A stretch of DNA of 61,936 nt from Ignavibacteriota bacterium (GTDB lineage: Bacteria > Bacteroidota > Ignavibacteria > UBA10030 > UBA6906): NCBI GenBank assembly GCA_003162635.1, contig PMNE01000030.1, positions 23,920 through 85,855 of the forward strand, given 5' to 3'. Both the position numbers and the translations under genes were made by a program. Shown here piece by piece: positions 5,851 to 59,869 of the stretch (the first letter of the stretch is position 1; every line of letters begins with the position of its first letter). The notes under the pieces were generated by a model, which had not been told where the DNA came from, made no database searches, and saw only the letters and a list, made by a program, of their open reading frames with translations.

Positions 5851-5870
5851 TGAAAGAGTATGTCTTTGAT

Positions 5871-22621: not shown

Positions 22622-22677
22622 GAAAACGAAGAGAGAAGAAAGGCGGAGCCCGATGTTCGCCATCGACGAGCTCCGCC
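22622..22677 (-). terminator. Terminator-like hairpin after the ROK kinase gene
   Basis: GGCGGAGC (22642-22649) / GCUCCGCC (22670-22677) with a long loop. The minus-strand transcript continues UUUCUUCUCUCUUCGUUUUC. Confidence 0.45.
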
Positions 22678-22698
22678 TTATCGATGTGTCAACAGCGC

Positions 22699-23670: not shown

Positions 23671-23673
23671 GTG

Positions 23674-27332: not shown

Positions 27333-27585
27333 GGATTCAGTTCCTGCTGCCGAAGCGGCAACAGCCGCAGGATTCAGACAGCTTGTATTGTTGGAAGCCG
27401 GGACGCACAACTTTCTGGGGCGAAGGCATGAAGCAGAGAATGGAAATACGGGAAGAAAGCCGTCCCATCGGGAGCGTACTTAAGTGTTTAACGTACACAT
27501 CTCTGCCAAGAATATCAAGAGCATGGCGGGTGGTTTCTTCACCACTTCGCACGATAAACCTGAAGGAGGCCGTGCGACTCCCCGG

Positions 27586-43152: not shown

Positions 43153-43404
43153 CTACGCAGCCGTGCAGGACGCCTGCTCGCTCCTGATGGCATCGACCGG
43201 GCAATCTTCCATTGCCTCGAGGATGAAATCTTCCTGCTCCGCTGTCTCCGGCTGTCGGGCAACGAAGTACGTGTTGGACCCCTTTTCAAAATCAAAACTG
43301 TCAGGCGCAACCGCCGCGCAATAGGCACATCCGTCGCATTCTTCCGTCGTGTAGTACTTTCCCGGCACGTTGCGGGGAAGTTTTCTCGGCTCCTCGGCTT
43401 CCAT
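43153..43404 (-). CDS. Small ferredoxin
   Basis: CDGCAYC...EDCP cluster motif. The ATG overlaps the ccmF stop by 1 nt (TGATG), with GGAGG upstream. Confidence 0.7.
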   Translation of the reverse strand: MEAEEPRKLPRNVPGKYYTTEECDGCAYCAAVAPDSFDFEKGSNTYFVARQPETAEQEDFILEAMEDCPVDAIRSEQASCTAA

Positions 43405-45661: not shown

Positions 45662-45677
45662 TTCAACATGCGTGCCA
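45662..45677 (-). promoter_or_regulatory. Sigma54-type promoter candidate upstream of ccmF
   Basis: Minus strand TGGCAC-GCATG-TTGAA. Perfect -24 element and spacing; the -12 element is TTGAA instead of TTGCW. Lies 36 nt upstream of the ccmF ATG. Confidence 0.45.
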
Positions 45678-45820: not shown

Positions 45821-45856
45821 CAACAATGGAAGAAGCCGGCGGGTTGTGCCGCCGGC
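45821..45856 (-). terminator. Terminator-like hairpin closing the multihaem operon
   Basis: GCCGGCGG (45835-45842) / CCGCCGGC (45849-45856). The minus-strand transcript continues UUCUUCCAUUGUUG. Confidence 0.45.
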
Positions 45857-45894
45857 CTCAACGATGAAACGTCACATGGATGGGTCTGCCTCTG

Positions 45895-46239
45895 TCACCC
45901 CATATGGAGGCGGTGCTTGAGCTGAGTCTCTTCGATAACCTCGACGATCATCGGGAAGTATCTGTCGAGAGCGCATGCCACGTCGTCCCGCAGCCGGCAG
46001 GACCCGTCGCCCGATTGGTGCGTGCAGACGCGGCAGACTTTCTCACGCAACTGCTCTTCGTAGGGTTCGATCGAAGAGCTGAACGCCGCATTGATCGCTT
46101 CGATGATCTGCGGGAATGAGGTCCGCAGCGCACATTCCCGGCCGTCGCCAATCCTACACTCTCCAAGACCGTCCCCATCCACGCACTTCGCACAGATCCT
46201 TTTCTCGATGGCTTCCCAGTACTCCACTTCCGTCGTCAT
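45895..46239 (-). CDS. Cytoplasmic Cys-rich protein with an internal tandem duplication (2 x CxxC-Xn-C-X6-CAL)
   Basis: ATG at 46239 after GAGGGAG. Repeats ICAKCVDGDGLGECRIGDGRECALRTSFPQIIEAI and VCRVCTHQSGDGSCRLRDDVACALDRYFPMIVEVI. Confidence 0.55.
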   Translation of the reverse strand: MTTEVEYWEAIEKRICAKCVDGDGLGECRIGDGRECALRTSFPQIIEAINAAFSSSIEPYEEQLREKVCRVCTHQSGDGSCRLRDDVACALDRYFPMIVEVIEETQLKHRLHMG

Positions 46240-46286
46240 GGCGGAGCTCCCTCTCAGTGTCTGAAAAAAATGGCGTTTTCCCGCGA

Positions 46287-46364
46287 TCACCCGTACGTCG
46301 CTGCCAGCAGCAATAGGAACAAAAGCGGCGGCACTATCGCTGCAAAAGCAAACCTGATTCTCAT
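46287..46364 (-). CDS. Candidate 25-aa hydrophobic micro-ORF
   Basis: MRIRFAFAAIVPPLLFLLLLAATYG. AGGGGAG lies 8 nt upstream of the ATG. An in-frame upstream ATG at 46388 overlaps the stop of the preceding cytochrome gene (TAATG). Confidence 0.25.
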   Translation of the reverse strand: MRIRFAFAAIVPPLLFLLLLAATYG

Positions 46365-46387
46365 CTCATTCTCCCCTGCGTTCTCCA

Positions 46388-47521
46388 TTATCGCATCGGA
46401 ACAGACCCGCCGAGCTCTGCGCGAAGATCGATCTGTCCGTTTATGTGTTTCGCTTTGTTGAGAATGTTCCCGGAAGCATCGGTGACGTCGCCGTGGCAAT
46501 CGACACAGTTGGCGAGTTCCGACAGGATATGGCCTTTGGGCACGTAAACACCCGGGGAGCCGCCATGGCAGCTCGAGCACTGTCCCTCGGCACTGCCTGC
46601 CACCCAGCTCGGGGACGCGTGAGCCCCCGTCATGACTGAATCAGTGTACACATATTGTTGCGCAAATGCCGATGCCGTCGCCTTCCGGAGTACCCAGTTT
46701 CCATGGCAGTACGTGCCGGCGCATGTCGGCGACGAATAAAGGGGGAGGGGAATGTTCGACCCGTTTCCCGTCACGAGACGCGCCAACGTATCCTTGAACA
46801 TGACGGCGGCAAGCCCGCCCGCATACTTGCGCTGAAAAGTCAGCAGATGACCAGGCTCGTAAATACTCGACGGAACATCATGGCATTCCTGGCACTTCAC
46901 TCCCTTCGCAGACCCGAGTGAATCGGCCCGCAGGTGGATCTGGTGCGCACCGACACCGAGAACCGTCGCCGCCGTATCGCGGAAAACGCTCTTGGGCGGC
47001 GCAGCGGAGAGCAGATATGCAATTCCCTGGAGATTTGCAGCGGCCCTGAAATCGCCATGACACGTGTTGCACGATTCGGGCGACTTCAGGTTCCCGTTGG
47101 CATCGGCGTGGCAGGAGGACGACTCACATCCCACGGTAAGAATCGCCCCGCCGGTGTAGTTCTGACCGTGGCAGGTCTGGCATTGTTGCAACGGGTAGTT
47201 CATGGCGCGCACATAATCCGTATGGCGTCCTCCCGCCTTGACGAACTGTACATCGTGTGGATAGGCGGGATGACACGTGAAGCACGACACCCCGCTGGAA
47301 CCTCCGCTAAAATCGGCAGCATGGCACGTCTTGCAGGCCGTGTCATCCCACCCCGCCTTCAGCAGAGAGCGTCCGTGAAAATTGTCAGAGGAACTTGTTC
47401 CCCATCCGGCTTCGTGCACTTTCACGCCCGACGCCACTGGTGCCGGCAGATCCGTTTTCAGCCTGGCGCAGGAAACTGCCAGCAGCGCACAAGTCAGGAG
47501 GAGGAGGATTCTCTGTGTCAT
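46388..47521 (-). CDS. Multihaem c-type cytochrome lipoprotein (7 CxxCH + 2 CxxxxCH)
   Basis: MTQRILLLLTCALLAVSC lipobox-like signal. CxxCH motifs CKTCH, CFTCH, CQTCH, CNTCH, CQECH, CSSCH, CVDCH, plus CESSSCH and CAGTYCH. Confidence 0.85.
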   Translation of the reverse strand: MTQRILLLLTCALLAVSCARLKTDLPAPVASGVKVHEAGWGTSSSDNFHGRSLLKAGWDDTACKTCHAADFSGGSSGVSCFTCHPAYPHDVQFVKAGGRHTDYVRAMNYPLQQCQTCHGQNYTGGAILTVGCESSSCHADANGNLKSPESCNTCHGDFRAAANLQGIAYLLSAAPPKSVFRDTAATVLGVGAHQIHLRADSLGSAKGVKCQECHDVPSSIYEPGHLLTFQRKYAGGLAAVMFKDTLARLVTGNGSNIPLPLYSSPTCAGTYCHGNWVLRKATASAFAQQYVYTDSVMTGAHASPSWVAGSAEGQCSSCHGGSPGVYVPKGHILSELANCVDCHGDVTDASGNILNKAKHINGQIDLRAELGGSVPMR

Positions 47522-47528
47522 GGTCGTC

Positions 47529-48749
47529 TCACCCTCTCTTTGGTCCATGGCAATATCCGCAGAAACCCTTCCCGGCGACCCCCCCCGGATGGGCATTCAT
47601 GTCGGTGTGGCAATTGTAGCAGGTCGCGCCGGGGTCGGTATGCCACGAGCCATGATCCTGCGAGCCGGCAAAGCCCGCGGGATGAGTCTTTGGATCCGTA
47701 CCGCGAATGCCGTCTGCATCGACATGGCACGTGATGCACACCGGGTCTCCCCCGCGTGCATCATGACAGGTCATGCAGCTTTCAATATCGCGCCGAGCCA
47801 ACTCCGCATGGCGTCCGCCCCCGGAGCCGACTCCAAGAGTCGTGAACCCCGATCCGATATGCGAAGCGGGGACCTGGCCCGGGGTCAGGCGATCGCCCTC
47901 GGCATGGCAACGCGCGCAGAAATCCTGCGCCGAATGGCACGTGAAGCAGTCAGATGACTTTGCCCGCGCGTCGATTCCGTGCGTGTAGCGGTAGTTCATG
48001 GAGTGCACGGTTTGCAGGGTCATCTTTTTCGGTCCCTCTTTTCCCGCATTGTTTCGCGGCGATGGCTCGGTCATCAGAGCGCTATTCCCCAACTGGAGGA
48101 GTTCTCCGCCGGCATGACACCCTGCACAGAAATCCTGGGAGTGGCACGTGACGCAGCGTACCTCCAGCGATCCGAGGCGCGTGAATCTCTTGTGGTCCTT
48201 CTTGAAATCCGCCACCAGGTGATCGTCGGGGATCAGATTGACGAAATTTGTATGGCATGCTTCACAGGTCTTCGTCGCCCGGACGTCATTATGACACGTC
48301 GTGCAGGTCGCCATGACGGGCATATTCGCCGGCCCGGCGTAGTCCGCCTTTTCCAGCCCCTGATGGCACGTCGTGCATGCGACGTCCGTCATCTCTATAT
48401 GCTGCTTGTGGGAGAACGTGATATCGCGCTCCGGTGCAGCCGCGGCGTGCATGTTCGTGGTGTCCTTATGACAGTACGCGCATGCGTTGTTGATCTGTTC
48501 TTCATGACATCCGACGCAGCTTTCATGGTTGCTCCGGAGATTGTCCGAAGCTTTCGTACTGGTCGAAGCCCCCTTGTGGCAGTCAATGCATGCAGCGCCC
48601 AGTTCCGTGACGTGGTGTGCATGCGAGAATTTCAGCGAACTCTTGTCGTCGTTGTCCGGCCAGCCCGCCGGGGCGCTCACTTTGCGAGCCACTGCTGTCA
48701 CCAGTGTGGCAATAAGGGCCACCGCGATAAAACCGTATCGGTATTTCAT
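47529..48749 (-). CDS. 14-haem c-type cytochrome (c7/c3-like repeats), periplasmic
   Basis: 14 CxxCH motifs in 406 aa. N-terminal hydrophobic signal/anchor MKYRYGFIAVALIATLVTAVA. FSHxxH...CxxCH units. GAGGAGG RBS. The ATG overlaps the upstream stop (TGATG). Confidence 0.9.
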   Translation of the reverse strand: MKYRYGFIAVALIATLVTAVARKVSAPAGWPDNDDKSSLKFSHAHHVTELGAACIDCHKGASTSTKASDNLRSNHESCVGCHEEQINNACAYCHKDTTNMHAAAAPERDITFSHKQHIEMTDVACTTCHQGLEKADYAGPANMPVMATCTTCHNDVRATKTCEACHTNFVNLIPDDHLVADFKKDHKRFTRLGSLEVRCVTCHSQDFCAGCHAGGELLQLGNSALMTEPSPRNNAGKEGPKKMTLQTVHSMNYRYTHGIDARAKSSDCFTCHSAQDFCARCHAEGDRLTPGQVPASHIGSGFTTLGVGSGGGRHAELARRDIESCMTCHDARGGDPVCITCHVDADGIRGTDPKTHPAGFAGSQDHGSWHTDPGATCYNCHTDMNAHPGGVAGKGFCGYCHGPKRG

Positions 48750-50056
48750 CAGTGGGCCTCCTCGGAAAAAAGTGACAGGCGTTCGGCAAACCAATAGAGA
48801 AGTCGGACCTGTAGGCGCATGTCGTGATCATAGAGCCTGTTTTTCATCCATTGCCCCTGGACGTCGAAGGAGAAGCTTCGGAGCGGGCGGACGGTGGCAC
48901 CCAGAAGAACGGCAAGCGCATTATCCCTGGGCGAATCAGCGCTCAGGCGATAGGAGACCAGAGAGACGCCAAGAGACGGCAGCAGCGTTCGATCGAAGAA
49001 CGGATACGTCCCCTCCGCATTGAACGACGTCAGCTCGCCGGCAAACCCGCTGCTTCCGGTGTATGTCACACTCCCGTAACCGCCGTTGACGCCCAGTGTC
49101 CATCGCATACTGTTGTCATCGGTGTAGCTCACGGATCCGAGCTTCCCGAACACGCGCACCATCGGTGTGACAATGTATTCGACCCCGCCCTCAATTTCGG
49201 TGGTGGAGCTCGCTGCAAACGCCGAGAAGATGGAATTGAAGGCGATCTGGGGTTTCCGGTAGAAGACGTCCCCCGTGACATCCAACGATGGCATCACGTG
49301 GACGCGAACGCCCCCCTCGCCCCTGGATGTTTCGGAGAAGTTGAAATCGTAATCGTACCTGCCATAGGCCGTCAGGAGGTCGCCGCACAGGTAGGAGGCA
49401 TCAACGCTTCCGAGCTGGCGGGCCAAAGACGTCCCGGAGATATAGTATGGCACAGGAATGCCAAGGGAGTCTCGTGCGCGTGTCGTCCAGTAAGGATCGT
49501 ACTCCTCGTGCCGGTTCATATAGCTCAGGCCGATACGGGCTTCGGGCACAAGCGTGGTAACGACCTGCCCGCCCACATTGATGTTATCGTGCCAATCGCT
49601 CCGCACCCCCGTGTACTCCTCCTTCACCGTCGACCCACCGTATCCGGTGACGGTGATTTTATCATCCAGAAGGCGTGCCCGGGCCGTGAGGCCGTCGATA
49701 TTCCCGTTCCCGACCCCTGCGAACACCGCTTGGCGGCCGAGACTCAGGTCGAGGGTCCTGCTGAAGCCGGTCCACGTCGCATAGAGGTTGTAGAATCGGA
49801 CGCGGCCCACGTCCCCGAACGAATTTGCTCCGTTCATCACACCCTGCGCGAAGGTGTGGAATACAAAATCGCCCTGAGCGACCGACAACTGCACGGTCTG
49901 ATATGCGCGCAGGTACGCCTTTGAGACGCCGACGGTATCGTACTGCTCCCAGGAATAGAACGACGTCGTGAAACGTCCATTAACGAGCTGGGCCGGGAGC
50001 GATGCGACGGCCGTCACCAGCAAAAGCGCCAGAAGAAACAAGCGTTTCTCGTTCAT
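48749..50056 (-). CDS. Porin-like outer-membrane beta-barrel candidate
   Basis: Signal peptide MNEKRLFLLALLLVTAVASLPAQ. No Cys or haem motifs. Many short segments with alternating hydrophobic residues rich in Y/G/S/T (VRFYNLYATWTG, IGLSYMNRH, YGRYDYDFNFS, RLQVRLLYWF). Confidence 0.6.
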   Translation of the reverse strand: MNEKRLFLLALLLVTAVASLPAQLVNGRFTTSFYSWEQYDTVGVSKAYLRAYQTVQLSVAQGDFVFHTFAQGVMNGANSFGDVGRVRFYNLYATWTGFSRTLDLSLGRQAVFAGVGNGNIDGLTARARLLDDKITVTGYGGSTVKEEYTGVRSDWHDNINVGGQVVTTLVPEARIGLSYMNRHEEYDPYWTTRARDSLGIPVPYYISGTSLARQLGSVDASYLCGDLLTAYGRYDYDFNFSETSRGEGGVRVHVMPSLDVTGDVFYRKPQIAFNSIFSAFAASSTTEIEGGVEYIVTPMVRVFGKLGSVSYTDDNSMRWTLGVNGGYGSVTYTGSSGFAGELTSFNAEGTYPFFDRTLLPSLGVSLVSYRLSADSPRDNALAVLLGATVRPLRSFSFDVQGQWMKNRLYDHDMRLQVRLLYWFAERLSLFSEEAH

Positions 50057-50089
50057 GGTGTACTGCCTTTCAGTACGGCTTCGAGGAAA

Positions 50090-50132
50090 GGAAGGAAAAA
50101 ACAGGGAGCCGGGGGAACACCGACGACCCGGC
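50090..50132 (-). terminator. Weak internal hairpin/attenuator between the tetrahaem and porin-like genes
   Basis: GCCGGG (50108-50113) / CCCGGC (50127-50132). The minus-strand transcript continues UCCCUGUUUUUUCCUUCC. Confidence 0.3.
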
Positions 50133-50156
50133 CCCGAGGAGAATGAGGCGACAGCG

Positions 50157-50705
50157 CTACTTCTTTGGTCCGCCATGTTCAATCTTCGCCCAGGCCTCTG
50201 CAAATTTGAATCCCTTGAACGAGGGGCTTCCGGAATTGTGGCACGTCTCGCACACTTTCTTGACATCGTCGCCGACGACAAGACCGGCAGCTTTTGCCTT
50301 TGCCTTGCTTTCGTCATCCTTCTTGTTGTGAAGACCGATAAAACCGGACGCAGCGCCATGGCATGCTTCGCAGGTGACGCCTTCTTCCATCTTGTAGGAG
50401 ACATCGACATTCTTTGCTGTCCCGCCGCCGGACACATGGCACTTCAGGCATTCGGGGCTCTCAGAGGCGGGCTTCGTCAGACCCCTCTTCTTCGCAATCT
50501 CTTCTGCTGCCTTCGACTTCAATGTTTCAAAAGCCATTGCATGGGGGCTCTTTTCCCACACGGCATAGGCAAGCCCGCCCATCTTCTCGATTTTGTGGCA
50601 GGCCATGCATCTCTTGACCCCGACAAACTTGTTCTCCGCAGTTGTCACGCCGCTCACACAGGCCACTGCCAGAGCGAGAGCAACGATTCCATGGATGGTT
50701 TTCAT
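50157..50705 (-). CDS. Periplasmic tetrahaem c-type cytochrome
   Basis: CMACH, CLKCH, CEACH, CETCH. Signal MKTIHGIVALALAVAC. GAAGGAGGA RBS. Confidence 0.85.
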   Translation of the reverse strand: MKTIHGIVALALAVACVSGVTTAENKFVGVKRCMACHKIEKMGGLAYAVWEKSPHAMAFETLKSKAAEEIAKKRGLTKPASESPECLKCHVSGGGTAKNVDVSYKMEEGVTCEACHGAASGFIGLHNKKDDESKAKAKAAGLVVGDDVKKVCETCHNSGSPSFKGFKFAEAWAKIEHGGPKK

Positions 50706-50773
50706 GCTGATGATCCTCCTTCGATTGTTTCTGGTGCTTGCGATGCAATGCGTGGTCAGACTTGCTCCGCGGG

Positions 50774-52225
50774 TCAACGTTTCTCGATCCGGCGGATGTA
50801 GAGATACAACGATGCCGCCAATATACTGATTATCAGGGTCGAAATGCCAAGGCCTATCCTTCGAAAGATGTATTCATCCAGCGCTCCCTGAGCTTCGATC
50901 GCAACGGAAGCCGACACCACAAGACCCTTGTCGACCGCAGTCGCAAACCGGGGAGCGTTGAATGCGTGAACGGTGGTCCGGGCTTCGAGTCGTGCCTGAT
51001 GGATATCCCGCAGCCGGTACTTGGCCTCCGAGATCTCCATCCCTTCCTGTTCTGCCTGCGCCACAAGTGCCTGTGCGCGCTGCTCCGACAACTCCAGGCT
51101 GTCAATCTGCAGGCGCATAACCTGCGCGGCAGAGTATCCCTGCGGATTGTCCGTCGGGGTATGGCAGCGGCTGCACACTGCATCGGACGACACGCCAAGC
51201 AGCGTGCTGGTTGCCGGCTCAATGTCATGATTGCCGTGGCACGTTTCGCACTCGGGGAGATGCCTTTCGTCGAACGCCTGCTTGTGCGGGCTTGCCGCAA
51301 AGAGATCGGCATTCAATGAATGGCAAATACCGCAGACCTTCGACACAGACTCGATGTCGGGCGGCGCCGCGCCGTGATTGCCATGGCAGCTATTGCATGC
51401 CGGGGCACCGAGATCGTTCTTCTTGAGAAGTGCAATGCCGTGCACGCTTCGCGTGAATTTTTCGTATTGATCCGTTGGAATGCCATACGGCTTCATGTAC
51501 GCCGCGTTGCTGTGACAGTTCGCGCATGTGGACGGCAGGTTCACCGGGAATACCTTTGAACGAACGTCTTTGACGGGAAGGATGCCGTGCGTTCCGTGGC
51601 AGCTCACGCACTCTGCCACTTTCGCATCGCCACGCGCGTTCTTCATGCCGTGCACGCTCGTCCGGTATTTCTCCCTCTGGTCGACAGGGAGGGCGGGATT
51701 ATATGCCCGCATATACGTCGCGTTGCTGTGACACGAGGAACAGGTCGCAACGATCTTCAGCGGGGAGACGGGTGAAGCAGGATCACGGACGGGCACGATG
51801 CCGTGCGCGCCATGACAGGTCGTGCACTGCACGATACGTTCCTTCCCGGAGATTGATTTCTGTCCGTGCACGCTCTCCTTGAGAAGCGCGAACTGGTTGG
51901 CAGGGAGCACGACATGATAGCCGGCCATCCGAACGGAATCCGCGTGGCACGCAGCGCATCGCGCGGAAATGACGTCGCCCTTCGGAACCCCGATGAAGTT
52001 CCCCTCTTTGTTCATTGCTTTCTCGGGGTCGTCCGTTGTCGCGTCTCCTCCGTGGCATCCGGCGCAGGTGACACCCGCACGGTGGTGAATGTCATGCGCG
52101 AATTGCGTCGAGGGTTTGTCGGCGATTGCCGTATGGCATTCGAAACACTTGTCCGCGCCCATTCCCACCCGCGTCCCCGCAAGGATGAGTGCCGCGACCG
52201 CGAGTCTCCGTATGCGCAGGATCAT
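50774..52225 (-). CDS. 11-haem c-type cytochrome with C-terminal coiled-coil and TM anchor (cytochrome c subunit of the Rieske/cyt b complex)
   Basis: 11 CxxCH motifs. Repeated module SVHG-X10-12-CxxCHGxHG. C-terminal [25 protein letters not shown] overlap with the cytochrome b gene. Confidence 0.88.
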
Positions 52226-53301
52226 AGAACCCAGCCCAGGATGGTGAAGGCGATGATATACATGACAGCACAGAGTCCCGCGTAGGAGAGTGCGCGGTTG
52301 CGTTCACCCCGTGCGCTCCTGCGATCCCAGAACGGGATCAGCAGCCACAGGAGTCCGGCGAGGGAGAACACAAAGACGCCGAGAACTTCACCGTCGATAA
52401 ACCCTATACGCGCCGGAATGAACTTCAGGGTCTGGAACATGAACAGAAAGTACCACTCCGGTCTGATGCCCGACGGCGCCGAGGCAAACAGATCGGCTTT
52501 CTTTCCCAACTCCCACGGGAAGAAGACGGCCAGGATCGCCAGCAGGTTCAGGACAATGAGCCAGAGGAGAAGATCGCGGAGGAGGAAGTTCGGAAAGAAG
52601 GGCATCGTCTTTCGGCCATTCGCAGGGAGAGCGGCCACGTGCAAGGGTTCGCTCATCCCTTGCCGCTGGACCAGCAGCAGATGAATTCCGAGCGCCACCG
52701 TAAAGATGCCTGGGAGCACCGCAACGTGAAAACCGAAGAACCGGGAAAGCGTCGCTCCGGTCACGTCCTCCCCCCCGCGGAGGAAAATCATCAGCGGCTT
52801 GCCGACAACGGGAATCACGCCCGCGATGTCCGTCCCCACTTTCGTTGCAAAGAATGCAAGTTCGTTCCACGGCAACAGGTATCCGCTAAACCCGAACCCG
52901 AGCGCAAGGAAGAACATGACCATCCCGGTCATCCACGTCAGCTCCCGCGGAGCGCGATATGACCGCTCGAAAAACACGCTGAACATGTGGACGAGCACTG
53001 CCAGGATGAACAGATTCGCTGACCAACTGTGAATCGACCGGATCAGCCAGCCGAACGACACTTTCGAAGAGATGAACTGGATGCTTTCGAAGGCCAGTTG
53101 CTCGCTCCCCTTGTAGTATAAGAGAAGGAGAATTCCCGTGACCACCTGAATCAGGAACAGGAAAAGCGATACACCTCCGAAATAGTACCAGATCGAATGC
53201 CGGTGCACCGGGACGTATTTCTTCCCCATGAACTCAACGAGGTTGGCGAGCTGGAGGCGCTCGTCAAGCCACGCGTAGAGTCTTTGCCAGGCACGTTGCA
53301 C
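52222..53301 (-). CDS. Cytochrome b (fused b6 + subunit IV type) of a Rieske/cyt b complex
   Basis: Motifs [35 protein letters not shown] and [13 protein letters not shown] start after GAGGA. Confidence 0.9.
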
Positions 53302-53309
53302 GGAGATCC

Positions 53310-53765
53310 TCAGACGTTTTTAGAAACAAACACATCACCCCCCTGAATCGATACCCGGTACGGATCGAGCGGACGCGGAGGCGGTCCAGCGATGTTGCGC
53401 CCGTTCAGATCATATCTACCGTTATGGCAGGCACACCAGATCGAACCAAAGTCCTTTCTGTATTGCACAGTGCAGTCCAGGTGTGTGCACGTCGCGGAAA
53501 ATGCACGAACCTCGCCCGCCGCTGTTCGCACGACGATAACAGGTTTGTTCCCGAAGCGCACAATCACGCCGCTCTCCTTCGGGAGAGAACTCAGCGTTCC
53601 CACCTTGACGCTCGTGACTTCCACCTCCGCCTGTTTGGGAGGACGAAGGTATGAGAATAACGGATACGCGATAGCTGCGAGCCACGCGACGAATCCCCCC
53701 GCGAGGATGTACCCCAGGAAGGATCGACGACTCGTCTGCTGCTTGAGTTGGGGAGGATACTCCAC
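53310..53765 (-). CDS. Rieske [2Fe-2S] protein with Tat-type signal
   Basis: [11 protein letters not shown] twin-arginine motif. Cluster boxes CTHLDCTV and [12 protein letters not shown] start after AAGGA. Confidence 0.9.
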
Positions 53766-53913
53766 GAATTCGTCCTTACAGGAAATTATCAGAAATCAAC
53801 GTGGTCGACCCAAAAGACGAACTCCTTTCGGAATCCGCGATGCGCAGGGACCCGACTGCCGGAGTGTCGTGCAGGAGGCGCACCCTGCCTGGCGACCGCT
53901 CCCGCGGATGCCA

Positions 53914-55407
53914 TTACTGAGCACTGTGGCAATCACTGCAGTTTGTTTCCTTCCACGCATCACCGATGTCCACGGGATGCTTGTACTCCACGCCGTCAAG
54001 CGACAGGCGAAGCTTGTCGTTGGACAACTCCTCCGCAAGAATCGTATGACAGGTATTACAGTCCCGGGACAACACTTTCCCTTCTTCCGAAAGGTGTTTC
54101 CCGTCGTGACACCGGAAGCAGCCCGGATAGTACATATGCCCGATATTGTCCGGAAATCTCCTCCAGCTCACCTGCATCTCGGGGAAGTAATTACGGGCGT
54201 AGATCTTCCTGACCTCGCCGATCGCCTGCTCGATCGCCGCGTGCTGCGTTGCGGCCACCTGGGGATACTGTGTACGATACGATTCTTCGATGAACGCGCC
54301 GATACTGTCCAGCGCCCCCTGTTGCGTCGCGTACGGCATTTCCAACGCTTTCACGGCGAGGCTCTTGATCGACGGGAGAGCGGGGTCCACCCATCCAAGT
54401 GCCATAACGTGATCAACTGATCGCGCAGGCGGATGGTAAATGTGGGTCGGACGGTTATGACAGTCGATGCAGTCCATTTTCCTTTTCGGCAGCTTCGCGA
54501 CTTCCTCGTCGCTGACCGGGTTATCGCTGGAACGGTAGACGGACACGCTCCCATCGGGTCGACGCACCTGCACCCACGGAATCACCTGACGAGTCGAGTC
54601 GGCAGGCGCATACGTCACCTGATTCGCGATGTTCATGTGCCAGTGGATTCCCGATGTCGGCCCCGCTTCACTATTGCCCCCTCCGATTTTCACCAGGAGG
54701 TTCAGACTCCATCGTGTATTGTGCTCGTCCTGCAGAAAGTATGTGTTGACGAGAAGCTTTTCACTATAGAAATGCATCGGCCAGTGGCATTGCTCGCAGG
54801 TTTCCTGCGCAGGGCGGAGATTTTCGATCGGGGTCGGGATTGGCCGTGGATATTTGTTGAAGAGCGTTGCATAGACCTGATATGTTCCCGAAAGCTTGGA
54901 ACGCACGAACCAGTCAGCACCCGGCCCGATGTGACACTTGACGCACCCAACGCGTGCGTGCGCCGAATATTGGTACGCAGTGTACTCCGGAGCCATAACC
55001 TTATGACATGTTTCCCCGCAGAACTGATCCGAATCGGTATGTTCGTATGCCTGATAGCTTCCGAAGGCCGAGAAGAGCAGGAGCAGAATCAATCCTCCGG
55101 CCACATAGAGGAAGGCCCTCCGGTGCCGCGGATCGTTCATGTCGACCCTGGGCAGGTGCATTTCCGACGGCCTCCCTGCGCGGAGTCTCCGGTGTTCGCG
55201 AATGACGCCGACCAGCGCCAGCAGAAGGCCGAGGACAAGAATCGCCGGCAGCAAGACAAAAGCGATCACCCCCATGTACGGTTTCGGCGCCGCGGAGAGC
55301 GATTCCAGAAGCATCAGAAAGAGCACGAGCCCGAAACTCACCGCAGCGACGGCGCCGCCGGCAAGGGTCAGCGAATTGTAAAATGACGAGGGTAATGCTC
55401 GTTTCAC
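53914..55407 (-). CDS. ImcH-like inner-membrane multihaem cytochrome (3 TM + 7 haem motifs, NapC/NirT-related)
   Basis: Three N-terminal TM segments. CGETCH (CX3CH) plus CVKCH, CEQCH, CIDCH, CFRCH, CNTCH, CSDCH. GTGA overlap with the upstream gene. Confidence 0.8.
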   Translation of the reverse strand: MKRALPSSFYNSLTLAGGAVAAVSFGLVLFLMLLESLSAAPKPYMGVIAFVLLPAILVLGLLLALVGVIREHRRLRAGRPSEMHLPRVDMNDPRHRRAFLYVAGGLILLLLFSAFGSYQAYEHTDSDQFCGETCHKVMAPEYTAYQYSAHARVGCVKCHIGPGADWFVRSKLSGTYQVYATLFNKYPRPIPTPIENLRPAQETCEQCHWPMHFYSEKLLVNTYFLQDEHNTRWSLNLLVKIGGGNSEAGPTSGIHWHMNIANQVTYAPADSTRQVIPWVQVRRPDGSVSVYRSSDNPVSDEEVAKLPKRKMDCIDCHNRPTHIYHPPARSVDHVMALGWVDPALPSIKSLAVKALEMPYATQQGALDSIGAFIEESYRTQYPQVAATQHAAIEQAIGEVRKIYARNYFPEMQVSWRRFPDNIGHMYYPGCFRCHDGKHLSEEGKVLSRDCNTCHTILAEELSNDKLRLSLDGVEYKHPVDIGDAWKETNCSDCHSAQ

Positions 55408-57569
55408 AAGAGACTTTCCTCCGTTCCTTCCTGTTCGGTCTGCGTCTCCCGGCGCAATTGTTCAAGCTCCAGCGGATGCTCCTCTTCCATCTCCCCTTCC
55501 GTCAGTGTTCCCTTCCAGAAAGCAAGATTGATCGGGTATGTGTCTGGATTGAAGATGACAAAGTACATGTGCCAGACCAGAATGGCAAGTGTTGCCAGCC
55601 AGGCCTCGTAGTAATGGATGGTCCGGGCGATATCCCAACCGAGTTTCGTCAGCAGACCAAGGAATGTGTTATCGAACCACATGATCACTCCCGTCGCTGC
55701 CATCACCACGACACCCCAGACAAGGGCCCAATATTCGCTCTTTTCAATGTAGCTAAACCGGCCGAATTGAGGTTTCTCTTTCGCGAAGCCGAGGTTGTAC
55801 TTCAAGACCCCAAACGCATCAGCAATATCCTGCGGCACCGGTGCCAGGTCGCGGAGAAGCTGCCTGCCTCGGCGTGTACAGAAGACATAGAAGAGGTGAT
55901 ATAGACCTGCCAGCACCAGCACCACGCCGGCGCATCGGTGAATGATACCGCGGGCGGCAAAAGCAAACGGGATGACGTTCCGGATCGGCACGACCCACCA
56001 GGCATCGGGGAATTTCAGCGCGAACCCGGTGAGCGCCAGCAGAAAGAAGCTGACGAGAAGAAGGCCATGTTGGATCCTCTCCCCGAGTGACATGCGCAAG
56101 TACAATCGGTGACCCGGCCTGTGCGGCGGCAAACCACCGCGACGCATCAGCAACCGGCGCTTCGACTTCCAGACGAAATCGAGCGCGTTGTGGACCGCCA
56201 TCCCCCCGATCACGACCGCAATCATGATGAAGTACGTCGAGGAGACGAGGTAAAGAACCCGGTCGTTCCCCGAACTTGCCAGGACGTGGACATTCCCTTT
56301 CGTAAAATTCTCGTTGGCGCCGGGGTGGCATGTCCCGCACGTCTTCGCAAGGTTCTTTTTGTTCACGCGTGAGGTTGAATCACTCGACGCCTTGATGTCA
56401 TGAACGCCGTGGCAGCTCGCGCAATTGGCGACTTCGACATTTCCCGCCCGTCCCGCGAGACCGTGGTAGCTGTCGGCAAAACTCTGGAAGCGATCGCTCG
56501 CAAGCCCGTACTTTTCGGTCAGCTTTACCGACGCGTGGCAGGGAGAACAGACCTGGGCCGAGACGTTCTTCGCCGCAACAGGCGAGGCGGCATCCTTGGG
56601 GGAGAGGATGTTGTGCTCGCCGTGACAGTCCGTGCAGGTGGCCGACGCCGTGACGCCCCGCGCAAACGACGTCCCGTGGATACTCTCTTCATACTGCTGC
56701 AGTATCTCTCCATGGCAGGCGCCGCATGTCCCGGCGATGTGTGCACGGGAAACCCGGGAATCGGGACGTGATCCTTTCTTCAGGTCGTGGCTCCCGTGGC
56801 AGTCAATGCAGGTCGCAGCCGCGTCATTGCCGTTCTTCACGGCCCGTCCATGGACGCTCCCTTCATAGCTCGACACGAAGGCGACCGACGGTCCCACCCG
56901 CGCACGAACATCAGGGTTATCGACATGACACCGGAGGCATTCCACCTGAATGTTCTTCCTGTTGGTACGTGACGAATCGTCGCCGGAGGGAAGAACGTCA
57001 TGCGCGCCGTGACAATCGATGCACGTCGGCGCCGCATTCACCCCGGCTGCCGCCGCAAGACCGTGGTCGGAGGCGGAATATTCCGCAGCCGCTGCGCCAT
57101 GACAGCGAATGCACGACTCACGCACAAGCGTGTTCTTTGCCTCTGCCCCCCCGCCGGAAATCCTCTCGATCGCATGCTTCGTGTGGCAATCGGCGCACGT
57201 CAATGCCCCTTGCGCTCCGTGCATCACGCCATGGACGCTCTTTCCGAATTTTTCTGTCTGCTTGTCGCTGTGGCAGGTGAGGCACTGCACGGGATGGATC
57301 TTCTTCGCGTGGGGAAGCTCAGCGGGGCTGAAACCGAGGTGACATGCGACGCAGGCAACTTCGCCATGGGCCGACTTCTTGAAGGAGAGGGGATCAACAT
57401 GCAGGGACACCGTTTTTCCCCTGCGCACCATGGTGGCTCCCTGCTCCCCGTGACATGCAAGACATTCGTCGTTCCCCTGCGCCCGGAGGCAGCACGGCAG
57501 CGCCGCCATGAGCACGGCCGCACATCCAAGCATCAACCCGATTCTCTGTCCTCGTGACCGAGTCATCAT
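55404..57569 (-). CDS. CbcL-like fusion: 13-haem periplasmic c-type cytochrome domain + FdnI/HydC-type dihaem cytochrome b membrane domain
   Basis: 13 CxxCH motifs. The C-terminal approximately 270 aa carry TM segments and conserved His (ERIQHGLLLVSFF, IIHRCAGVVL, ARTIHYYEAW, LVWHMYFV). Start re-called at MMTRSRGQRIGLMLGCAAVLMAALP (signal peptide). The alternative ATG at 57647 would bury the signal peptide. Confidence 0.82.
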   Translation of the reverse strand: MMTRSRGQRIGLMLGCAAVLMAALPCCLRAQGNDECLACHGEQGATMVRRGKTVSLHVDPLSFKKSAHGEVACVACHLGFSPAELPHAKKIHPVQCLTCHSDKQTEKFGKSVHGVMHGAQGALTCADCHTKHAIERISGGGAEAKNTLVRESCIRCHGAAAAEYSASDHGLAAAAGVNAAPTCIDCHGAHDVLPSGDDSSRTNRKNIQVECLRCHVDNPDVRARVGPSVAFVSSYEGSVHGRAVKNGNDAAATCIDCHGSHDLKKGSRPDSRVSRAHIAGTCGACHGEILQQYEESIHGTSFARGVTASATCTDCHGEHNILSPKDAASPVAAKNVSAQVCSPCHASVKLTEKYGLASDRFQSFADSYHGLAGRAGNVEVANCASCHGVHDIKASSDSTSRVNKKNLAKTCGTCHPGANENFTKGNVHVLASSGNDRVLYLVSSTYFIMIAVVIGGMAVHNALDFVWKSKRRLLMRRGGLPPHRPGHRLYLRMSLGERIQHGLLLVSFFLLALTGFALKFPDAWWVVPIRNVIPFAFAARGIIHRCAGVVLVLAGLYHLFYVFCTRRGRQLLRDLAPVPQDIADAFGVLKYNLGFAKEKPQFGRFSYIEKSEYWALVWGVVVMAATGVIMWFDNTFLGLLTKLGWDIARTIHYYEAWLATLAILVWHMYFVIFNPDTYPINLAFWKGTLTEGEMEEEHPLELEQLRRETQTEQEGTEESLL

Positions 57570-57815
57570 TGCGAGTATCAAAGGAACTTGGTCCGAACCA
57601 TGAGCCAGATCATCCCAAAGCGCGCCTAAAAACGGGTCAATGAGCATGCCAAGAACAGGGTATTGAATTTGTAGAGAATTGCCACATTTGCGATTGAGAG
57701 TGGGGTTTTATTCTCAAAACTGCAAGAGCAGGGTGTGCCTCTTTTCAGGCATGGGAATGGAAAGAGAAAAAATGGGTAAGAAAGGGGAAAAGCGGAATAG
57801 TATTCAGCGATGAGA

Positions 57816-58250
57816 TTAAACGGCGAGGAGTCTCTCTATCCGTCCTGAAACAGCGGAAATTTCGACCGGTTTGTAGAAGACCGAATCGACATGATCCCTG
57901 ATCGCGCGGTCCAGCGCCGCTTCCCGGGTATTGTACACGTAGAGCATGATCACAGGAAGGCATCCGCGGACGGACTTCAGCGAGTCGAGTGTGCTGATCA
58001 ATCGCTCAGAGGGAACGGCATCGACGATCAACAGATCGGCTGTGTGTTCGACGGCAAGAGACACCACCGTTGCCAGATTCGTCGTCGTGACAACGTGGAA
58101 TCTGTCCTGAAAGAGCATGAACAGACTAAAGCAGAGGTTGAGGTCCGGACTGAAGATGAGGATAGTTTTCTTATCTCCAGCCTGCTTGTCAACCCGGGCG
58201 CCACCGTTCACGCCGTGAGAATTTCCCTTCTCGTATGTCACGCCATCCAT
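57816..58250 (-). CDS. Stand-alone receiver (REC)-like domain protein
   Basis: KKTILIFSPD...ADLLIVDAVP...PVIMLYV...FYKPVEI matches the CheY-like fold pattern. The first ATG is 58250, after GGAGTGGAAG. Confidence 0.6.
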   Translation of the reverse strand: MDGVTYEKGNSHGVNGGARVDKQAGDKKTILIFSPDLNLCFSLFMLFQDRFHVVTTTNLATVVSLAVEHTADLLIVDAVPSERLISTLDSLKSVRGCLPVIMLYVYNTREAALDRAIRDHVDSVFYKPVEISAVSGRIERLLAV

Positions 58251-58372: not shown

Positions 58373-58388
58373 TTCAAGATATGTGCCA
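58373..58388 (-). promoter_or_regulatory. Sigma54-type promoter candidate upstream of the REC gene (and possibly the multihaem operon)
   Basis: Minus strand TGGCAC-ATATC-TTGAA, the same non-canonical -12 element as at 45662-45677. Confidence 0.4.
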
Positions 58389-58504
58389 ACGAGAACCGCC
58401 GGCGCAGCGCGTGGGGGGGGGCCTAATTGGCAGAGAAATGAAGCGGAAGGTGAGTTTCTCTACAGAGGGTCTTCCAAATTGTGGGAATCACCGAGGTGGA
58501 ATTC

Positions 58505-59869
58505 TCATGCCTGCAAAGGGATATCGAGCTCTTCGATCTTCCGATAGAGGGAGGAGAGACTGATTTTCAGCGCACGAGCGGTTGCTTCCTTGTTGAACTG
58601 GTTCGTCCGCAGTACGTGGCTGATGTACTGCCGTTCAAACTCATCGACGGCTTCCTTCATGGACCTTCGCCCGTCAAACGAGTACAGGGAATCCTGTTTC
58701 TGTTCGATGAACCCGGGGAGCTCGTTCTTGGTGATCAACATTCCTTCGGCAAAGATGACGGCCCGTTCGATGACGTTCTCCAGCTCGCGGATCTCCCCTT
58801 TCCACGAATGGGTCGTAAGCGATTTCATCACCTCGTTATCAACCCCGCGCACATTCTTGTTCATCTCCAGCGCGTATTTGCTCACAAAGTGCTCGACCAG
58901 AAGGGGGATGTCGTCGGGACGTTCCGCCAAAGTCGGGAGTTTGAGTTCGACGATGTTCAACCGGTAGAAGAGATCCTCCCGGTAACGCCCCGCCTCCACC
59001 TCTTTGGAGAGGTTCTTATTGGTGGAGGCAATAATGCGGACGTCGATCGTGTGCGGCACCGCGGATCCGACAGGCGTCACCTCCTTTTGTTCGATCGCGC
59101 GAAGAAGTTTCACCTGGAGGTGGAGGGGTATCTCGCTCACCTCGTCGAGGAATATTGATCCCCCTTCCGCCGCCTTAAAGAATCCTTCCTGATCGGCGTT
59201 GGCACCGGTAAATGATCCACGCTTGTGGCCAAACAGCTCGCTCTCAAAGAGGTTCTCCACGATCGCACCGCAATTCACCGCGATGAACGGCTTGCCGTTC
59301 CTCCTGCTGTTATAGTGGATGGCGCGAGCGACGAGTTCCTTTCCTGTTCCGCTCTTCCCGTAGATGAGGACGGTCCCGTCCGTCGCAGCCACCTTCTTGA
59401 TCGTGTCGAACACCCGGTGCATCGCCACGCTCTGCCCGACCATCTTGGTAAAGTCGTACTGCCAGTTCAGCTCGCTCCGCAGGAGCTTATTCTCGATGGT
59501 GAGGCGGCGGCTGGCGAGAAGCCGTCGCACCTTGACCAGCAGCTCGTCGAACTCCACCGGCTTCAGGATGTAATCCATCGCTCCCTTCCGCAGCGCGGCG
59601 ATTGCTGTATCGATGGAGCCGTACGCGGTGATGATCATGACGAGCGTTTCCGGGTGCGTGTGCGCGACATGCTCGAGCAGTTCAATCCCCTTCATCTCCG
59701 GCATTTCAAGATCTGTGAGGACCAGGTCAAAGTCGCCGGTTTTCAGTATCTCAATGGCCGCCTTGCCATTGGGGGCTTCCTTCACGTCATAGCCCTCCTT
59801 GGTAAGGACGAACGAAAGCGACTCCCGGATGATGTCTTCATCGTCGACGATCAGAATCGATTCAGCCAT
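58505..59869 (-). CDS. Sigma54-dependent response regulator (NtrC family: REC + AAA+ + Fis-type HTH)
   Basis: ILIVDDE receiver, Walker A GKSGTGKE, GSFTGA sigma54-contact loop, C-terminal HTH NKEATARALKISLSSLYRKI. Confidence 0.9.
   Translation of the reverse strand: MAESILIVDDEDIIRESLSFVLTKEGYDVKEAPNGKAAIEILKTGDFDLVLTDLEMPEMKGIELLEHVAHTHPETLVMIITAYGSIDTAIAALRKGAMDYILKPVEFDELLVKVRRLLASRRLTIENKLLRSELNWQYDFTKMVGQSVAMHRVFDTIKKVAATDGTVLIYGKSGTGKELVARAIHYNSRRNGKPFIAVNCGAIVENLFESELFGHKRGSFTGANADQEGFFKAAEGGSIFLDEVSEIPLHLQVKLLRAIEQKEVTPVGSAVPHTIDVRIIASTNKNLSKEVEAGRYREDLFYRLNIVELKLPTLAERPDDIPLLVEHFVSKYALEMNKNVRGVDNEVMKSLTTHSWKGEIRELENVIERAVIFAEGMLITKNELPGFIEQKQDSLYSFDGRRSMKEAVDEFERQYISHVLRTNQFNKEATARALKISLSSLYRKIEELDIPLQA

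Follow-up and report, generated by a model that had tools for sequence, protein, structure and literature searches.

A run of ten genes (g1–g10) on the minus strand of a 61,936-nt stretch of contig PMNE01000030.1 from an Ignavibacteriota bacterium (hereafter the window) is probably a sigma-54-regulated operon for extracellular electron transfer of the porin–cytochrome (Pcc) type, equipped with inner-membrane entry points of its own. The genes are consecutive and tightly packed, occupying positions 45895–57569 (up to 57647 in the list of open reading frames, ORFs), and all ten ORFs were found where an earlier reading of the DNA from its letters (the sequence-only reading) had placed them (Table 1). 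Its count of 58 haem motifs was likewise reproduced, with 55 CxxCH motifs (13 in g1, 6 in g2, 11 in g5, 4 in g6, 14 in g8 and 7 in g9) and three CX3-4CH motifs (one in g2 and two in g9). The 55 CxxCH fall within 3,620 residues, compared with a single one in the 46,266 residues of all remaining open frames of at least 100 amino acids in the 62-kb window, and chance is therefore excluded. The central claim of that reading, alternative quinol modules together with a periplasmic shuttle and a porin–cytochrome module in one cluster, agrees with architecture, structure prediction and synteny. From these three lines, which support it well, we infer a function in extracellular electron transfer; the novelty of the system had been overstated, as set out in the comparison with known systems below.

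Inner-membrane quinol modules

The product of g1 starts with a signal peptide; its 13-haem c domain is periplasmic and is followed at the C-terminus by a dihaem b domain of the FdnI/HydC kind with five to six transmembrane (TM) segments, which begin at residue 429 after the 13 CxxCH motifs. Profile searches returned Pfam Ni_hydr_CYTB (prokaryotic cytochrome b561; 1.8e-14) and TIGR01583 FdnI (1.3e-13), and alignment with E. coli FdnI (1kqf_C) placed His489 and His532 on haem-ligand positions, as well as His640/655. In CbcL, MtoC and MtrH, too, a periplasmic multihaem c domain is fused to a HydC/FdnI-like dihaem b part of about six TM segments at the C-terminus. CbcL of G. sulfurreducens has nine haems, the last of them 28 residues before the first of six TM segments (Shi et al., 2018, Table S2); g1 contains the 28-30/28/43/28 spacing module of CbcL one extra time, and its last haem lies 30 residues before the first TM segment. 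Thirteen haems were counted in 24 of 25 g1 orthologues.

The heptahaem protein g2 starts with three TM helices (residues 15–33, 47–65 and 98–116), continues with a CGETCH motif (CX3CH) at residue 130 and six CxxCH motifs, and matches Pfam Cytochrom_NNT, TIGR03153 NrfH and the NrfH structure 2j7a_C. ImcH is defined by this very layout (Levar, 2014): three TM helices at the N-terminus, a region resembling NapC/NirT, and seven haem motifs beginning with a CX3CH. Motif spacing is also nearly superimposable, with positions 130, 155, 204, 313, 430, 450 and 490 in g2 and 132, 156, 205, 311, 428, 448 and 486 in ImcH (GSU3259). Of the residues described for the haem-1 pocket of G. sulfurreducens ImcH (preprint 10.1101/2023.05.03.539133), H137, K173, Q179 and Y188 recur at a constant offset of −2 as H135, K171, Q177 and Y186 of g2, and E127 may correspond to D125 or E122, an uncertain equivalence with positions compared without alignment. 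Both the layout and the spacing with its pocket residues thus identify g2 as ImcH-type, and the 6+1 motifs were present in all 51 orthologues.

A third module is formed by g3, g4 and g5. The Rieske protein g3 has a motif resembling a twin-arginine translocation (Tat) signal (SRRSFLG), one N-terminal TM segment (residues 15–33) and intact cluster boxes (CTHLDC at 93 and CACH at 111). Cytochrome b (g4) matched cytochrome b6 of the PDB at 3.7e-59 and also gave strong matches to cytochromes b of bc1 complexes; the four haem histidines (H91/H105 and H192/H207) have b6-type spacing and a PEWY Qo motif stands at residue 281, while no haem-ci cysteine was found in g4. A monohaem c1/f-type or dihaem c subunit is not encoded next to them. 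Its place is taken by g5 with 11 CxxCH and a C-terminal anchor, which would stand in for cytochrome c1 or f in the complex. As this co-translated c subunit is an 11-haem protein, the module is a multihaem variant (compare the ExtN-type partners) and not a canonical bc1 or b6f complex. In relatives g5 accompanies g3 and g4, and 37 of 38 orthologues have 11 haems. The identities proposed for g1–g4 before any search was run are those returned by the profiles (multihaem c with Ni_hydr_CYTB, NapC/NirT/NrfH-like, Rieske and cytochrome b/b6).

Periplasmic carrier and outer-membrane module

The tetrahaem protein g6 aligns with cytochrome c554 of Nitrosomonas (1bvb_A, 1e-11), and its orthologues carry a Sec-type signal, making it a candidate periplasmic shuttle. 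For g7 no Pfam or NCBIfam family was found, and its homologues (at least 226) are all annotated as hypothetical. Its AlphaFold2 (AF2) model, with a mean predicted local distance difference test (pLDDT) value of 79, shows 24 antiparallel strands which include nearly all of the 412 mature residues, and Foldseek searches with this model found outer-membrane barrels only, the best of them 24-strand ushers with a TM-score (TMq) of about 0.5. The porin-like barrel suggested from the letters was thus borne out by predicted structure, and g7 is predicted to have the plug-less transmembrane barrel of a Pcc porin-like protein. As a barrel of 24 strands without a plug would be an open hole unless filled, the AF2 model argues for g7 as the sheath of a cytochrome. 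The neighbouring g8, in which all 14 CxxCH motifs and 12 further histidines are invariant in an alignment of 32 sequences, is the candidate for the inserted wire and for the counterpart of IALB_1838 from Ignavibacterium album. Downstream of it, g9 is a candidate surface-exposed terminal reductase; its orthologues share a lipobox (...[AG][SG]C-SELKxDLP), and their haem number ranges from 5 to 9. The three genes are direct neighbours, with signal peptides on g7 and g8 and the lipobox in the g9 orthologues, which is the adjacency expected of a Pcc. Sequence searches of the PDB with g5, g8, g9 and g10 gave generic c7/c3 fragments or nothing.

Conservation in related genomes

A single scan with the barrel alignment, run on species-representative genomes, yielded 121 relatives, from which 80 species-level loci (L numbers) were kept; counts for single genes refer to the loci with enough flanking sequence, namely 48 upstream and 49 downstream of the barrel. 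The order g6-g7-g8-g9 is retained in essentially all 80 loci, so that the gene order, which the sequence-only reading had proposed to test in related genomes, is kept across about 80 species. Downstream of the barrel, g8 and g9 were present in 49/49 loci and ccmF in 33/49, and upstream of it g6 was found in 46/48, an ImcH-type gene in 40/48, a CbcL-type gene in 32/48 and the Rieske/b/11-haem trio in 30–32/48. The order of the inner-membrane modules differs between loci. Haem numbers are fixed in g1 (13), g2 (6+1), g5 (11) and g8 (14) and variable in the outermost g9, which may be read in the light of the generally poor conservation of multihaem cytochromes in Geobacter (Joshi et al.).

Some relatives have inserted genes, among them extra 5-haem cytochromes, an 8-haem/4Fe-4S/NrfD module, a TonB-like protein and housekeeping genes. 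In L029 (3411–6105; also in L053, L069 and L083) a fourth type of quinol module stands between the ImcH-type and Rieske genes; it is made up of a cytochrome with eight haems, a 4Fe-4S protein of Tat type and a membrane protein of the NrfD family, a layout resembling that of Geobacter Cbc3/Cbc4. In two of the 80 loci (L011, 5305–9793; L060, 4697–9194) a Psr/Ttr-like set of molybdopterin oxidoreductase, 4Fe-4S protein and NrfD lies directly upstream of the barrel module, together with extra 4- and 5-haem cytochromes. Reductases for soluble substrates (nitrite, sulfite or hydroxylamine) were looked for across the 80 loci, and none of them shows a consistent link to the cluster.

The whole cluster is present in L087, a complete MAG (metagenome-assembled genome) of 3.64 Mb, in which the cluster is followed (16069–21239) by genes for ferrochelatase, uroporphyrinogen decarboxylase, HEM4 and an amine-oxidase-type protein resembling protoporphyrinogen oxidase. 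L077, a MAG labelled I. album, has the orthologues in the same order, and an exact-sequence cluster look-up of its proteins returned unnamed MAG proteins only. The relatives of the barrel come from MAGs labelled Ignavibacteriae, Ignavibacteriota or Bacteroidota, and a protein identical to g4 is encoded on many contigs (including GCA_003157155.1/PMIR01000087.1) of the permafrost-thaw metagenomes of Stordalen Mire. The host is an uncultured Ignavibacteriota/Bacteroidota bacterium of the peat fen at Stordalen Mire.

Gene junctions, promoters and the CcmF–ferredoxin unit

Overlapping junctions, already noted in the sequence-only reading, were confirmed for g1/g2 (4 nt, GTGA), g4/g5 (4 nt, ATGA), g7/g8 (1 nt) and g9 with a 33-residue ORF (1 nt). 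Short gaps separate g3/g4 (8 nt) and g8/g9 (7 nt), and longer ones g2–g3 (148 nt), g5–g6 (68 nt) and g6–g7 (100 nt). In another assembly of the same locus (L003) the g6–g7 spacer is about 180 nt longer and the barrel call is shorter (422 amino acids). While the ORFs themselves are real, several starts had been set too far upstream. From gene calls in six independent assemblies of the locus and from signal-peptide positions, they were revised for g6 (50705), g7 (50056), g8 (48749), g9 (47521) and g10 (46239). The start of g1 is most likely 57569 (MMTRSRGQR...) or 57533, since the ATG used before (57645–57647) falls within the −24 box of a conserved sigma-54-type promoter.

Upstream of g1 lie genes for a PAS-PAS histidine kinase, in which no TM or hydrophobic segment was found, and for an NtrC-type regulator consisting of a receiver, an AAA+ sigma-54 interaction domain and a Fis-type helix-turn-helix domain. 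The two genes overlap by 8 nt. In the closest relatives the kinase is kept upstream of the cluster, and orthologues of the regulator with 71–84% identity occupy the same place in L007, L010, L012, L013, L016, L019, L020 and L023; the small receiver-like g0 is kept between the regulator and g1 in close relatives. The pattern TGGCAY-N5-TTGH, which was partly derived from the very sites it describes, has only three matches in the window, all on the minus strand and upstream of g0, g1 and ccmF. These sigma-54-type elements occupy the same positions in at least eight related species despite diverged flanking sequence. The g1 element TGGCATGCTCATTGA is conserved in the eight loci just listed and in L018, and a (near-)identical copy of the ccmF element occurs about 50 nt upstream of that gene in more than 20 related species. 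The −12 element is TTGA in this clade, where the consensus has TTGC, and in more distant relatives TGGCAC-N5-TTGC/T precedes the barrel gene by about 55 nt and also stands ahead of g1 or g6. Matches to sigma-70-type promoters in the region did not exceed the number expected from shuffled sequence.

The sequence hallmarks of an operon controlled by sigma-54 and a bacterial enhancer-binding protein, namely −24/−12 elements and an NtrC-type activator next to them, are both present here. The TTCC-N8-GGAA palindrome upstream of g0 is a candidate enhancer site, and the boxes with TTCCCA/GGAA arms upstream of the g0 and g1 promoters are candidate sites for the same regulator. Likely, g0, g1–g10 and ccmF–ferredoxin are three units of one regulon, as judged from these elements, and the kinase/regulator pair probably switches on the operon, g0 and the separate CcmF–ferredoxin unit. 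A comparable arrangement is known from the Geobacter cbcBA operon, which has a sigma-54 promoter and the NtrC-type regulator BccR and is induced at low potential (Joshi et al.).

Downstream, g10 is followed by a GC-rich hairpin with a T-rich tail that resembles a terminator; it was read from the sequence, and a consensus scan did not list it. Haem-supply genes had been proposed to belong to the neighbourhood of the island, which is correct in part: a gene for a CcmF-type haem lyase is indeed present, and follows this hairpin with a promoter of its own. The gene for an 84-residue 4Fe-4S ferredoxin is GTGA-coupled to ccmF and follows it in 26 related species loci. A speculative role for the pair is haem attachment at the atypical CX3CH (g2) and CX4CH (g9) sites, with CcmF as a lyase dedicated to them and the ferredoxin as its reductant. 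In other assemblies of the same locus (L001 and L004) ccmF is in two pieces, reflecting strain-level or assembly variation. The second proposed haem-supply gene, a HemN-like radical-SAM (S-adenosylmethionine) gene, exists as well and was rejected as a member of the island, being about 14 kb away behind genes related to the tricarboxylic acid cycle, a CoA-transferase and oxidoreductases.

Comparison with known systems

The closest described system is the pcc cluster of I. album with four genes, IALB_1837–1840 (Shi et al., 2014; PMC4245776), whose 14-haem protein IALB_1838 (400 amino acids) was the largest periplasmic Pcc cytochrome found by those authors. Matched by published description, the periplasmic cytochrome IALB_1840 corresponds to g6, the porin-like IALB_1839 to g7, IALB_1838 to g8 and the outer-membrane cytochrome IALB_1837 with its atypical CXnCH motifs to g9. 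Compared to I. album pcc, the modules of ImcH-, CbcL- and Rieske/b-type, the two-component/sigma-54 set and CcmF–ferredoxin are additional in the present cluster, as they are in over 30 related species. In the I. album type strain, which does have pcc, a cytochrome b–Rieske complex is reported to be absent (Liu et al., 2012), so that within the phylum the Rieske module is an accessory part. Geobacter-like Pcc in Ignavibacterium and Melioribacter are treated as established in later papers (including PMC7399161, which also reports that Ignavibacteria with such clusters are enriched on anodes), Melioribacter reduces Fe(III) (literature including PMC7399161), and Ignavibacteriaceae MAGs of a humic bog carry pcc homologues and Cyc2-like genes (PMC6344600). 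Homologues of ImcH and CbcL in Ignavibacteriae have been catalogued (PMC6295460, PMC4251993), and the ImcH entries of Shi et al. (2018) for this group have 496–498 amino acids and the seven-motif layout of g2.

With the Geobacter Pcc (OmaB-OmbB-OmcB and ExtABCD-type) the cluster shares its logic of several quinol oxidases, periplasmic carriers, a porin-sheathed cytochrome and a lipoprotein cytochrome; with Geobacter ImcH and CbcL, g2 and g1 share architecture and motif spacing, and with cbcBA/BccR the cluster shares a probable sigma-54 dependence and an NtrC-type regulator. It differs in that Geobacter imcH is monocistronic and the cbcBA operon contains no conduit. A c554-like protein takes the place of the triheme PpcA as candidate periplasmic carrier, the putative inserted cytochrome contains 14 haems where that of Geobacter has 8, and the third quinol module is of Rieske/b6-type, whereas Geobacter has CbcB, a b-haem protein resembling a thiosulfate reductase subunit, with the heptahaem CbcA.

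The sequence-only reading had described such parts as scattered in Geobacter, which does not hold for extHIJKLMNOPQS (Cbc6), where a porin, multihaem cytochromes, the Rieske protein ExtO, the b6-like ExtP, the subunit-IV-like ExtQ and a lipoprotein cytochrome are already united (Jahan et al., 2018; PMC5877670). One cluster with porin, multihaem cytochromes, Rieske/b and lipoprotein cytochrome is thus common to both. With its N-terminal half, g4 covers the entire ExtP model (E 5.6e-62) and scores 209 bits at a cut-off of 290, ExtN and ExtO reach about 17 bits at a cut-off of 200 (g5 being the weak match to ExtN), and ExtKL reaches 16 bits at a cut-off of 250. Neither a rhodanese (ExtH) nor a selenocysteine cytochrome (ExtKL) nor ExtJ was found in the cluster, so that by the ExtP, ExtN and ExtO equivalogs, ExtH and ExtKL it is not an ext cluster. 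Two further differences are the fusion of b6 and subunit IV in g4 and the presence of ImcH and CbcL.

The Mtr clusters of Shewanella and Rhodoferax have the porin–cytochrome principle in common, while their barrel and decahaem MtrA/MtrC families are unrelated to the proteins described here, and models for the MtrC domain and DmsE gave weak partial matches only, all far below cut-off. MtrB is a 26-strand barrel of about 700 amino acids. The entry of electrons and the conduit are combined in one cluster of Rhodoferax ferrireducens as well, where two cymA genes and mtrH accompany mtrABC (PMC6295460).

In view of I. album pcc, of the catalogued ImcH and CbcL homologues and of Rhodoferax, the implied absence of precedent cannot be maintained, and the cluster is a well-preserved, extended member of the porin–cytochrome kind reported in the phylum since 2014. 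In the searchable literature we found no description of ImcH, CbcL, Rieske/b and an ignavibacterial Pcc as one operon, of this sigma-54/PAS regulon or of the conserved CcmF–ferredoxin pair, and no paper on extracellular electron transfer in Ignavibacteria with Rieske and multiheme proteins or on cytochromes of Stordalen Ignavibacteria; a multi-omics study of Melioribacter (PMC5492636) does not mention any of these subjects.

Proposed pathway and alternatives

Menaquinol would be oxidised at the periplasmic face by the ImcH-type, the CbcL-type or the Rieske/b6-type/11-haem module, and the electrons would pass to the soluble c554-like tetrahaem protein g6, from there into the 14-haem g8 lodged in the plug-less barrel g7 of about 24 strands, and finally to the surface lipoprotein cytochrome g9 (7+2 haems), which would reduce extracellular acceptors. 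In a fen rich in iron and humics, these acceptors are most likely humic substances and Fe(III) minerals, reduced by a heterotroph, a suggestion that agrees with Fe(III) reduction by Melioribacter, the Ignavibacteria enriched on anodes and the pcc homologues of the humic bog.

Several observations weigh against this reading. As a rule, the acceptor of a Rieske centre has to lie well above the potential of menaquinol, which is a poor fit with low-potential Fe(III) oxides, and the Rieske/b module may therefore serve another purpose, such as the use of high-potential acceptors with energy conservation by a Q-cycle, or a reverse run during electron uptake. About one third of the related loci lack the Rieske/b and CbcL modules, which are therefore accessory. 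The internal gaps of 148, 100 and 68 nt bear weak hairpins, and in more distant relatives a promoter stands immediately before the barrel gene; one transcript is therefore not assured. The single-chain AF2 model of g8, made from the 32-sequence alignment, is unreliable with a pLDDT of 53, the counterparts of g6–g9 in I. album were matched from published descriptions, and the I. album proteins are only distantly related to Geobacter OmbB/OmaB/OmcB (PMC4245776). Gene content, architectures, the predicted barrel fold, conserved synteny and conserved promoter elements were shown, and it is from them that we infer localisation, complex formation, direction of flow, substrate and co-transcription.

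Some of these points would also be explained if the pcc were real and the Rieske/b/11-haem genes, perhaps with CbcL, merely adjacent, coding for a general complex III which feeds other reductases or oxidases. Besides the absence of g3–g5 from about a third of the loci, their variable position relative to g6, the hairpin in the 148-nt g2–g3 gap, the separate sigma-54 promoters before g1, g6 and g7 in distant relatives and the I. album type strain with pcc but without cytochrome b–Rieske (Liu et al., 2012) would fit such an assembly of independent units. We nevertheless consider it improbable, since g3–g5, wherever they are present (at least 30 species), invariably lie inside the cluster in the same orientation, with ImcH/CbcL on one side and the barrel on the other, the c subunit is an 11-haem wire and not a monohaem c1, and no promoter-like element precedes g3 in the window. 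Somewhat less improbable, although still unlikely, is a conduit that runs inward or in both directions and takes up electrons, be it from Fe(II) or reduced humics, from a cathode or from a syntrophic partner, with the Rieske/b complex reversed to push them uphill into the quinone pool. A complete Rieske/b6-type complex within the operon speaks for this possibility, and Fe(II) oxidisers such as Acidithiobacillus make use of bc1 complexes that run in reverse. Moreover, the CbcL homologues MtoC and MtrH occur in Fe(II) oxidisers and reducers alike, so that sequence is blind to direction (PMC6295460), and Cyc2-like genes accompany pcc homologues in the humic-bog MAGs. On the other hand, ImcH, the most conserved inner-membrane partner (40/48 loci), has so far been characterised in metal reducers, the cultured relatives are Fe(III) reducers, the gene context in the window degrades sugars and organic acids, and no carbon-fixation or terminal oxidase genes are linked to the cluster in the window.

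Very unlikely, in our view, is the reduction of a soluble or periplasmic substrate (selenite or tellurite, sulfur compounds, nitrogen oxides) with the barrel as an uptake porin, as proposed for Geobacter ExtI. The union of porin, cytochromes and Rieske/b in the ext cluster (PMC5877670), the match of g4 to ExtP of this selenite/tellurite operon and of g5, weakly, to ExtN, and the molybdopterin oxidoreductase/FeS/NrfD sets in two of the 80 loci may be taken as hints in this direction. The ExtP and ExtN scores, however, stay under their cut-offs, rhodanese and the selenoprotein ExtKL have no equivalent in the cluster, the cluster proteins show no CxxCK or other catalytic-haem signature, and no reductase is consistently linked across the loci. 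In addition, the barrel is always trailed by the coupled 14-haem and lipoprotein cytochromes, which is the porin–cytochrome signature, and a plug-less barrel with the predicted 24 strands would be far wider than a solute porin needs.

With extracellular electron transfer through a Pcc preferred, a more specific version can be put forward tentatively, in which export is tuned to potential by three entries: a proton-motive Rieske/b6 Q-cycle complex with its 11-haem subunit would be hard-wired to the conduit, a cytoplasmic PAS protein acting as redox sensor would switch all of it through sigma-54, and CcmF–ferredoxin would serve the CX3-4CH sites. In the literature, none of Q-cycle-to-conduit wiring, a PAS/sigma-54 switch or a dedicated CcmF–ferredoxin was found described for extracellular electron transfer. 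If true, Ignavibacteriota would gain an energy-conserving route to high-potential extracellular acceptors, or reversible electron uptake. These bacteria occur widely, from peat and aquifers to sediments and anode biofilms, but how they respire iron and humics has so far not been dissected; where permafrost thaws into fens, as at Stordalen Mire, methanogenesis and the reduction of iron and humics draw on the same electrons. What the locus provides is a compact set of conserved, probably co-regulated parts; their orthologues are clear in the cultured relatives Melioribacter and Ignavibacterium, and the set could be used as a marker for metatranscriptomes or as a target for genetics and heterologous expression. 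ImcH, CbcL and Rieske/b in one operon would also be a natural test, outside Geobacter, of how quinol oxidases are partitioned by acceptor potential.

Small genes and surroundings

Table 1. Features of the cluster and its surroundings in the window (positions count from the first nucleotide of the window; aa, amino acids)
Feature	Position	Strand	Description	Basis
PAS kinase	59862..61286	-	cytoplasmic PAS-PAS histidine kinase, 474 aa	Pfam PAS_9/PAS, HisKA, HATPase_c
NtrC-type regulator	58505..59869	-	sigma-54-dependent response regulator	Response_reg 1.3e-32, Sigma54_activat 2.6e-68, HTH_8
Upstream element	58471..58506	-	GAGAATTCC...ATTCCCACAATTTGGAAG, TTCC-N8-GGAA palindrome upstream of g0	footprint, window and 8 related species
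g0 promoter	58374..58388	-	sigma-54-type -24/-12 element TGGCACATATCTTGA, 124 nt upstream of g0	pattern match; same place in 8 related species
g0	57816..58250	-	small receiver-like protein, 144 aa, divergent CheY-like domain	Response_reg E 0.0025, below cut-off
g1 upstream boxes	57669..57758	-	ATTCCCATGCCTGAAAAG, TTGCAGTTTTGAGAAT, AATGTGGCAATTCTCTACAA	footprints, window and 9 related species
g1 promoter	57637..57651	-	sigma-54-type -24/-12 element TGGCATGCTCATTGA, ~68 nt upstream of probable g1 start	
g1	55404..57569	-	CbcL/MtoC/MtrH-type quinol oxidoreductase	13 CxxCH, Ni_hydr_CYTB, FdnI
g2	53914..55407	-	ImcH-type inner-membrane heptahaem quinol oxidase	3 TM, NapC/NirT/NrfH-like region
g3	53310..53765	-	Rieske [2Fe-2S] subunit	Pfam Rieske 6e-13
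g4	52222..53301	-	cytochrome b, b6-type N-half fused to subunit-IV-like C-half	Pfam Cytochrome_B 6e-49, Cytochrom_B_C
g5	50774..52225	-	11-haem c-type cytochrome with C-terminal membrane anchor	11 CxxCH, TM 457-475
g6	50157..50705	-	soluble periplasmic tetrahaem cytochrome, c554-like	Pfam Cytochrome_C554 3.9e-19
g7	48749..50056	-	outer-membrane beta-barrel, ~24 strands, no plug domain	AF2 and Foldseek
g8	47529..48749	-	14-haem c-type cytochrome, 406 aa	14 CxxCH
g9	46388..47521	-	lipoprotein multihaem cytochrome (7 CxxCH + 2 CX4CH)	Pfam/TIGR GSu_C4xC__C2xCH
33-aa ORF	46287-46388	-	hydrophobic, uncertain gene, MENAGENEMRIRFAFAAIVPPLLFLLLLAATYG	called in all six assemblies of locus
g10	45895..46239	-	cytoplasmic 114-aa protein, two CxxC-x8-C-x7-C repeats	
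Hairpin after g10	45828..45859	-	GC-rich GCCGGCGG/CCGCCGGC with T-rich tail, terminator-like	read from sequence
ccmF promoter	45663..45677	-	sigma-54-type element TGGCACGCATGTTGA, ~36 nt upstream of ccmF start 45626	
ccmF	43404-45626	-	CcmF-type haem lyase	Pfam Cytochrom_C_asm, CcmF_C
Ferredoxin	43153-43407	-	84-aa 4Fe-4S ferredoxin, GTGA-coupled to ccmF	Fer4_13
Sugar-utilisation block	19985-29841	-	three glycoside hydrolase family 3 (GH3) glycosidases (one with PA14 domain), ROK kinase, major facilitator superfamily (MFS) transporter	
T9SS-sorted protein	14052-16322	-	756 aa, C-terminal sorting domain of the type IX secretion system (T9SS)	domain match

The Cys-rich g10, for which neither a Pfam family nor a signal peptide was found, probably binds a metal or a cluster, as its 79 homologues, all unnamed, keep all eight cysteines invariant. 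The family (about 113 amino acids) is restricted to these Bacteroidota/Ignavibacteriota MAGs, and g10 follows g9 in 11/49 loci. In more distant relatives, weaker paralogues of g10 (35–39% identity) are found about 3.5 kb downstream of ccmF. The 33-residue ORF sits between g9 and g10, and other species gave only two weak matches to it.

The window further contains MFS transporters, subunits of a 2-oxoacid:ferredoxin oxidoreductase and an acetyl-CoA hydrolase/transferase. The T9SS-sorted protein and the GH3/ROK/MFS block support a polysaccharide-degrading lifestyle, and together with the 2-oxoacid:ferredoxin oxidoreductase and its like they make the host a heterotroph of the Fibrobacteres–Chlorobi–Bacteroidetes (FCB) group. 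A T9SS-bearing FCB-group host, as recognised without knowledge of the source of the DNA, is in accord with its Ignavibacteriota/Bacteroidota MAG, and the heterotrophic gene context fits the need for an electron sink. In the cluster region no Rfam family and no tRNA were detected, and the DNA repeats of this region consist of nothing but the coding sequence of CxxCH motifs and of 70-residue dihaem modules. Elsewhere in the window, a SAM riboswitch (Rfam RF00162, 76 bits) lies at 5734–5852 on the minus strand, directly upstream of a same-strand ORF of 411 amino acids (4488–5723).

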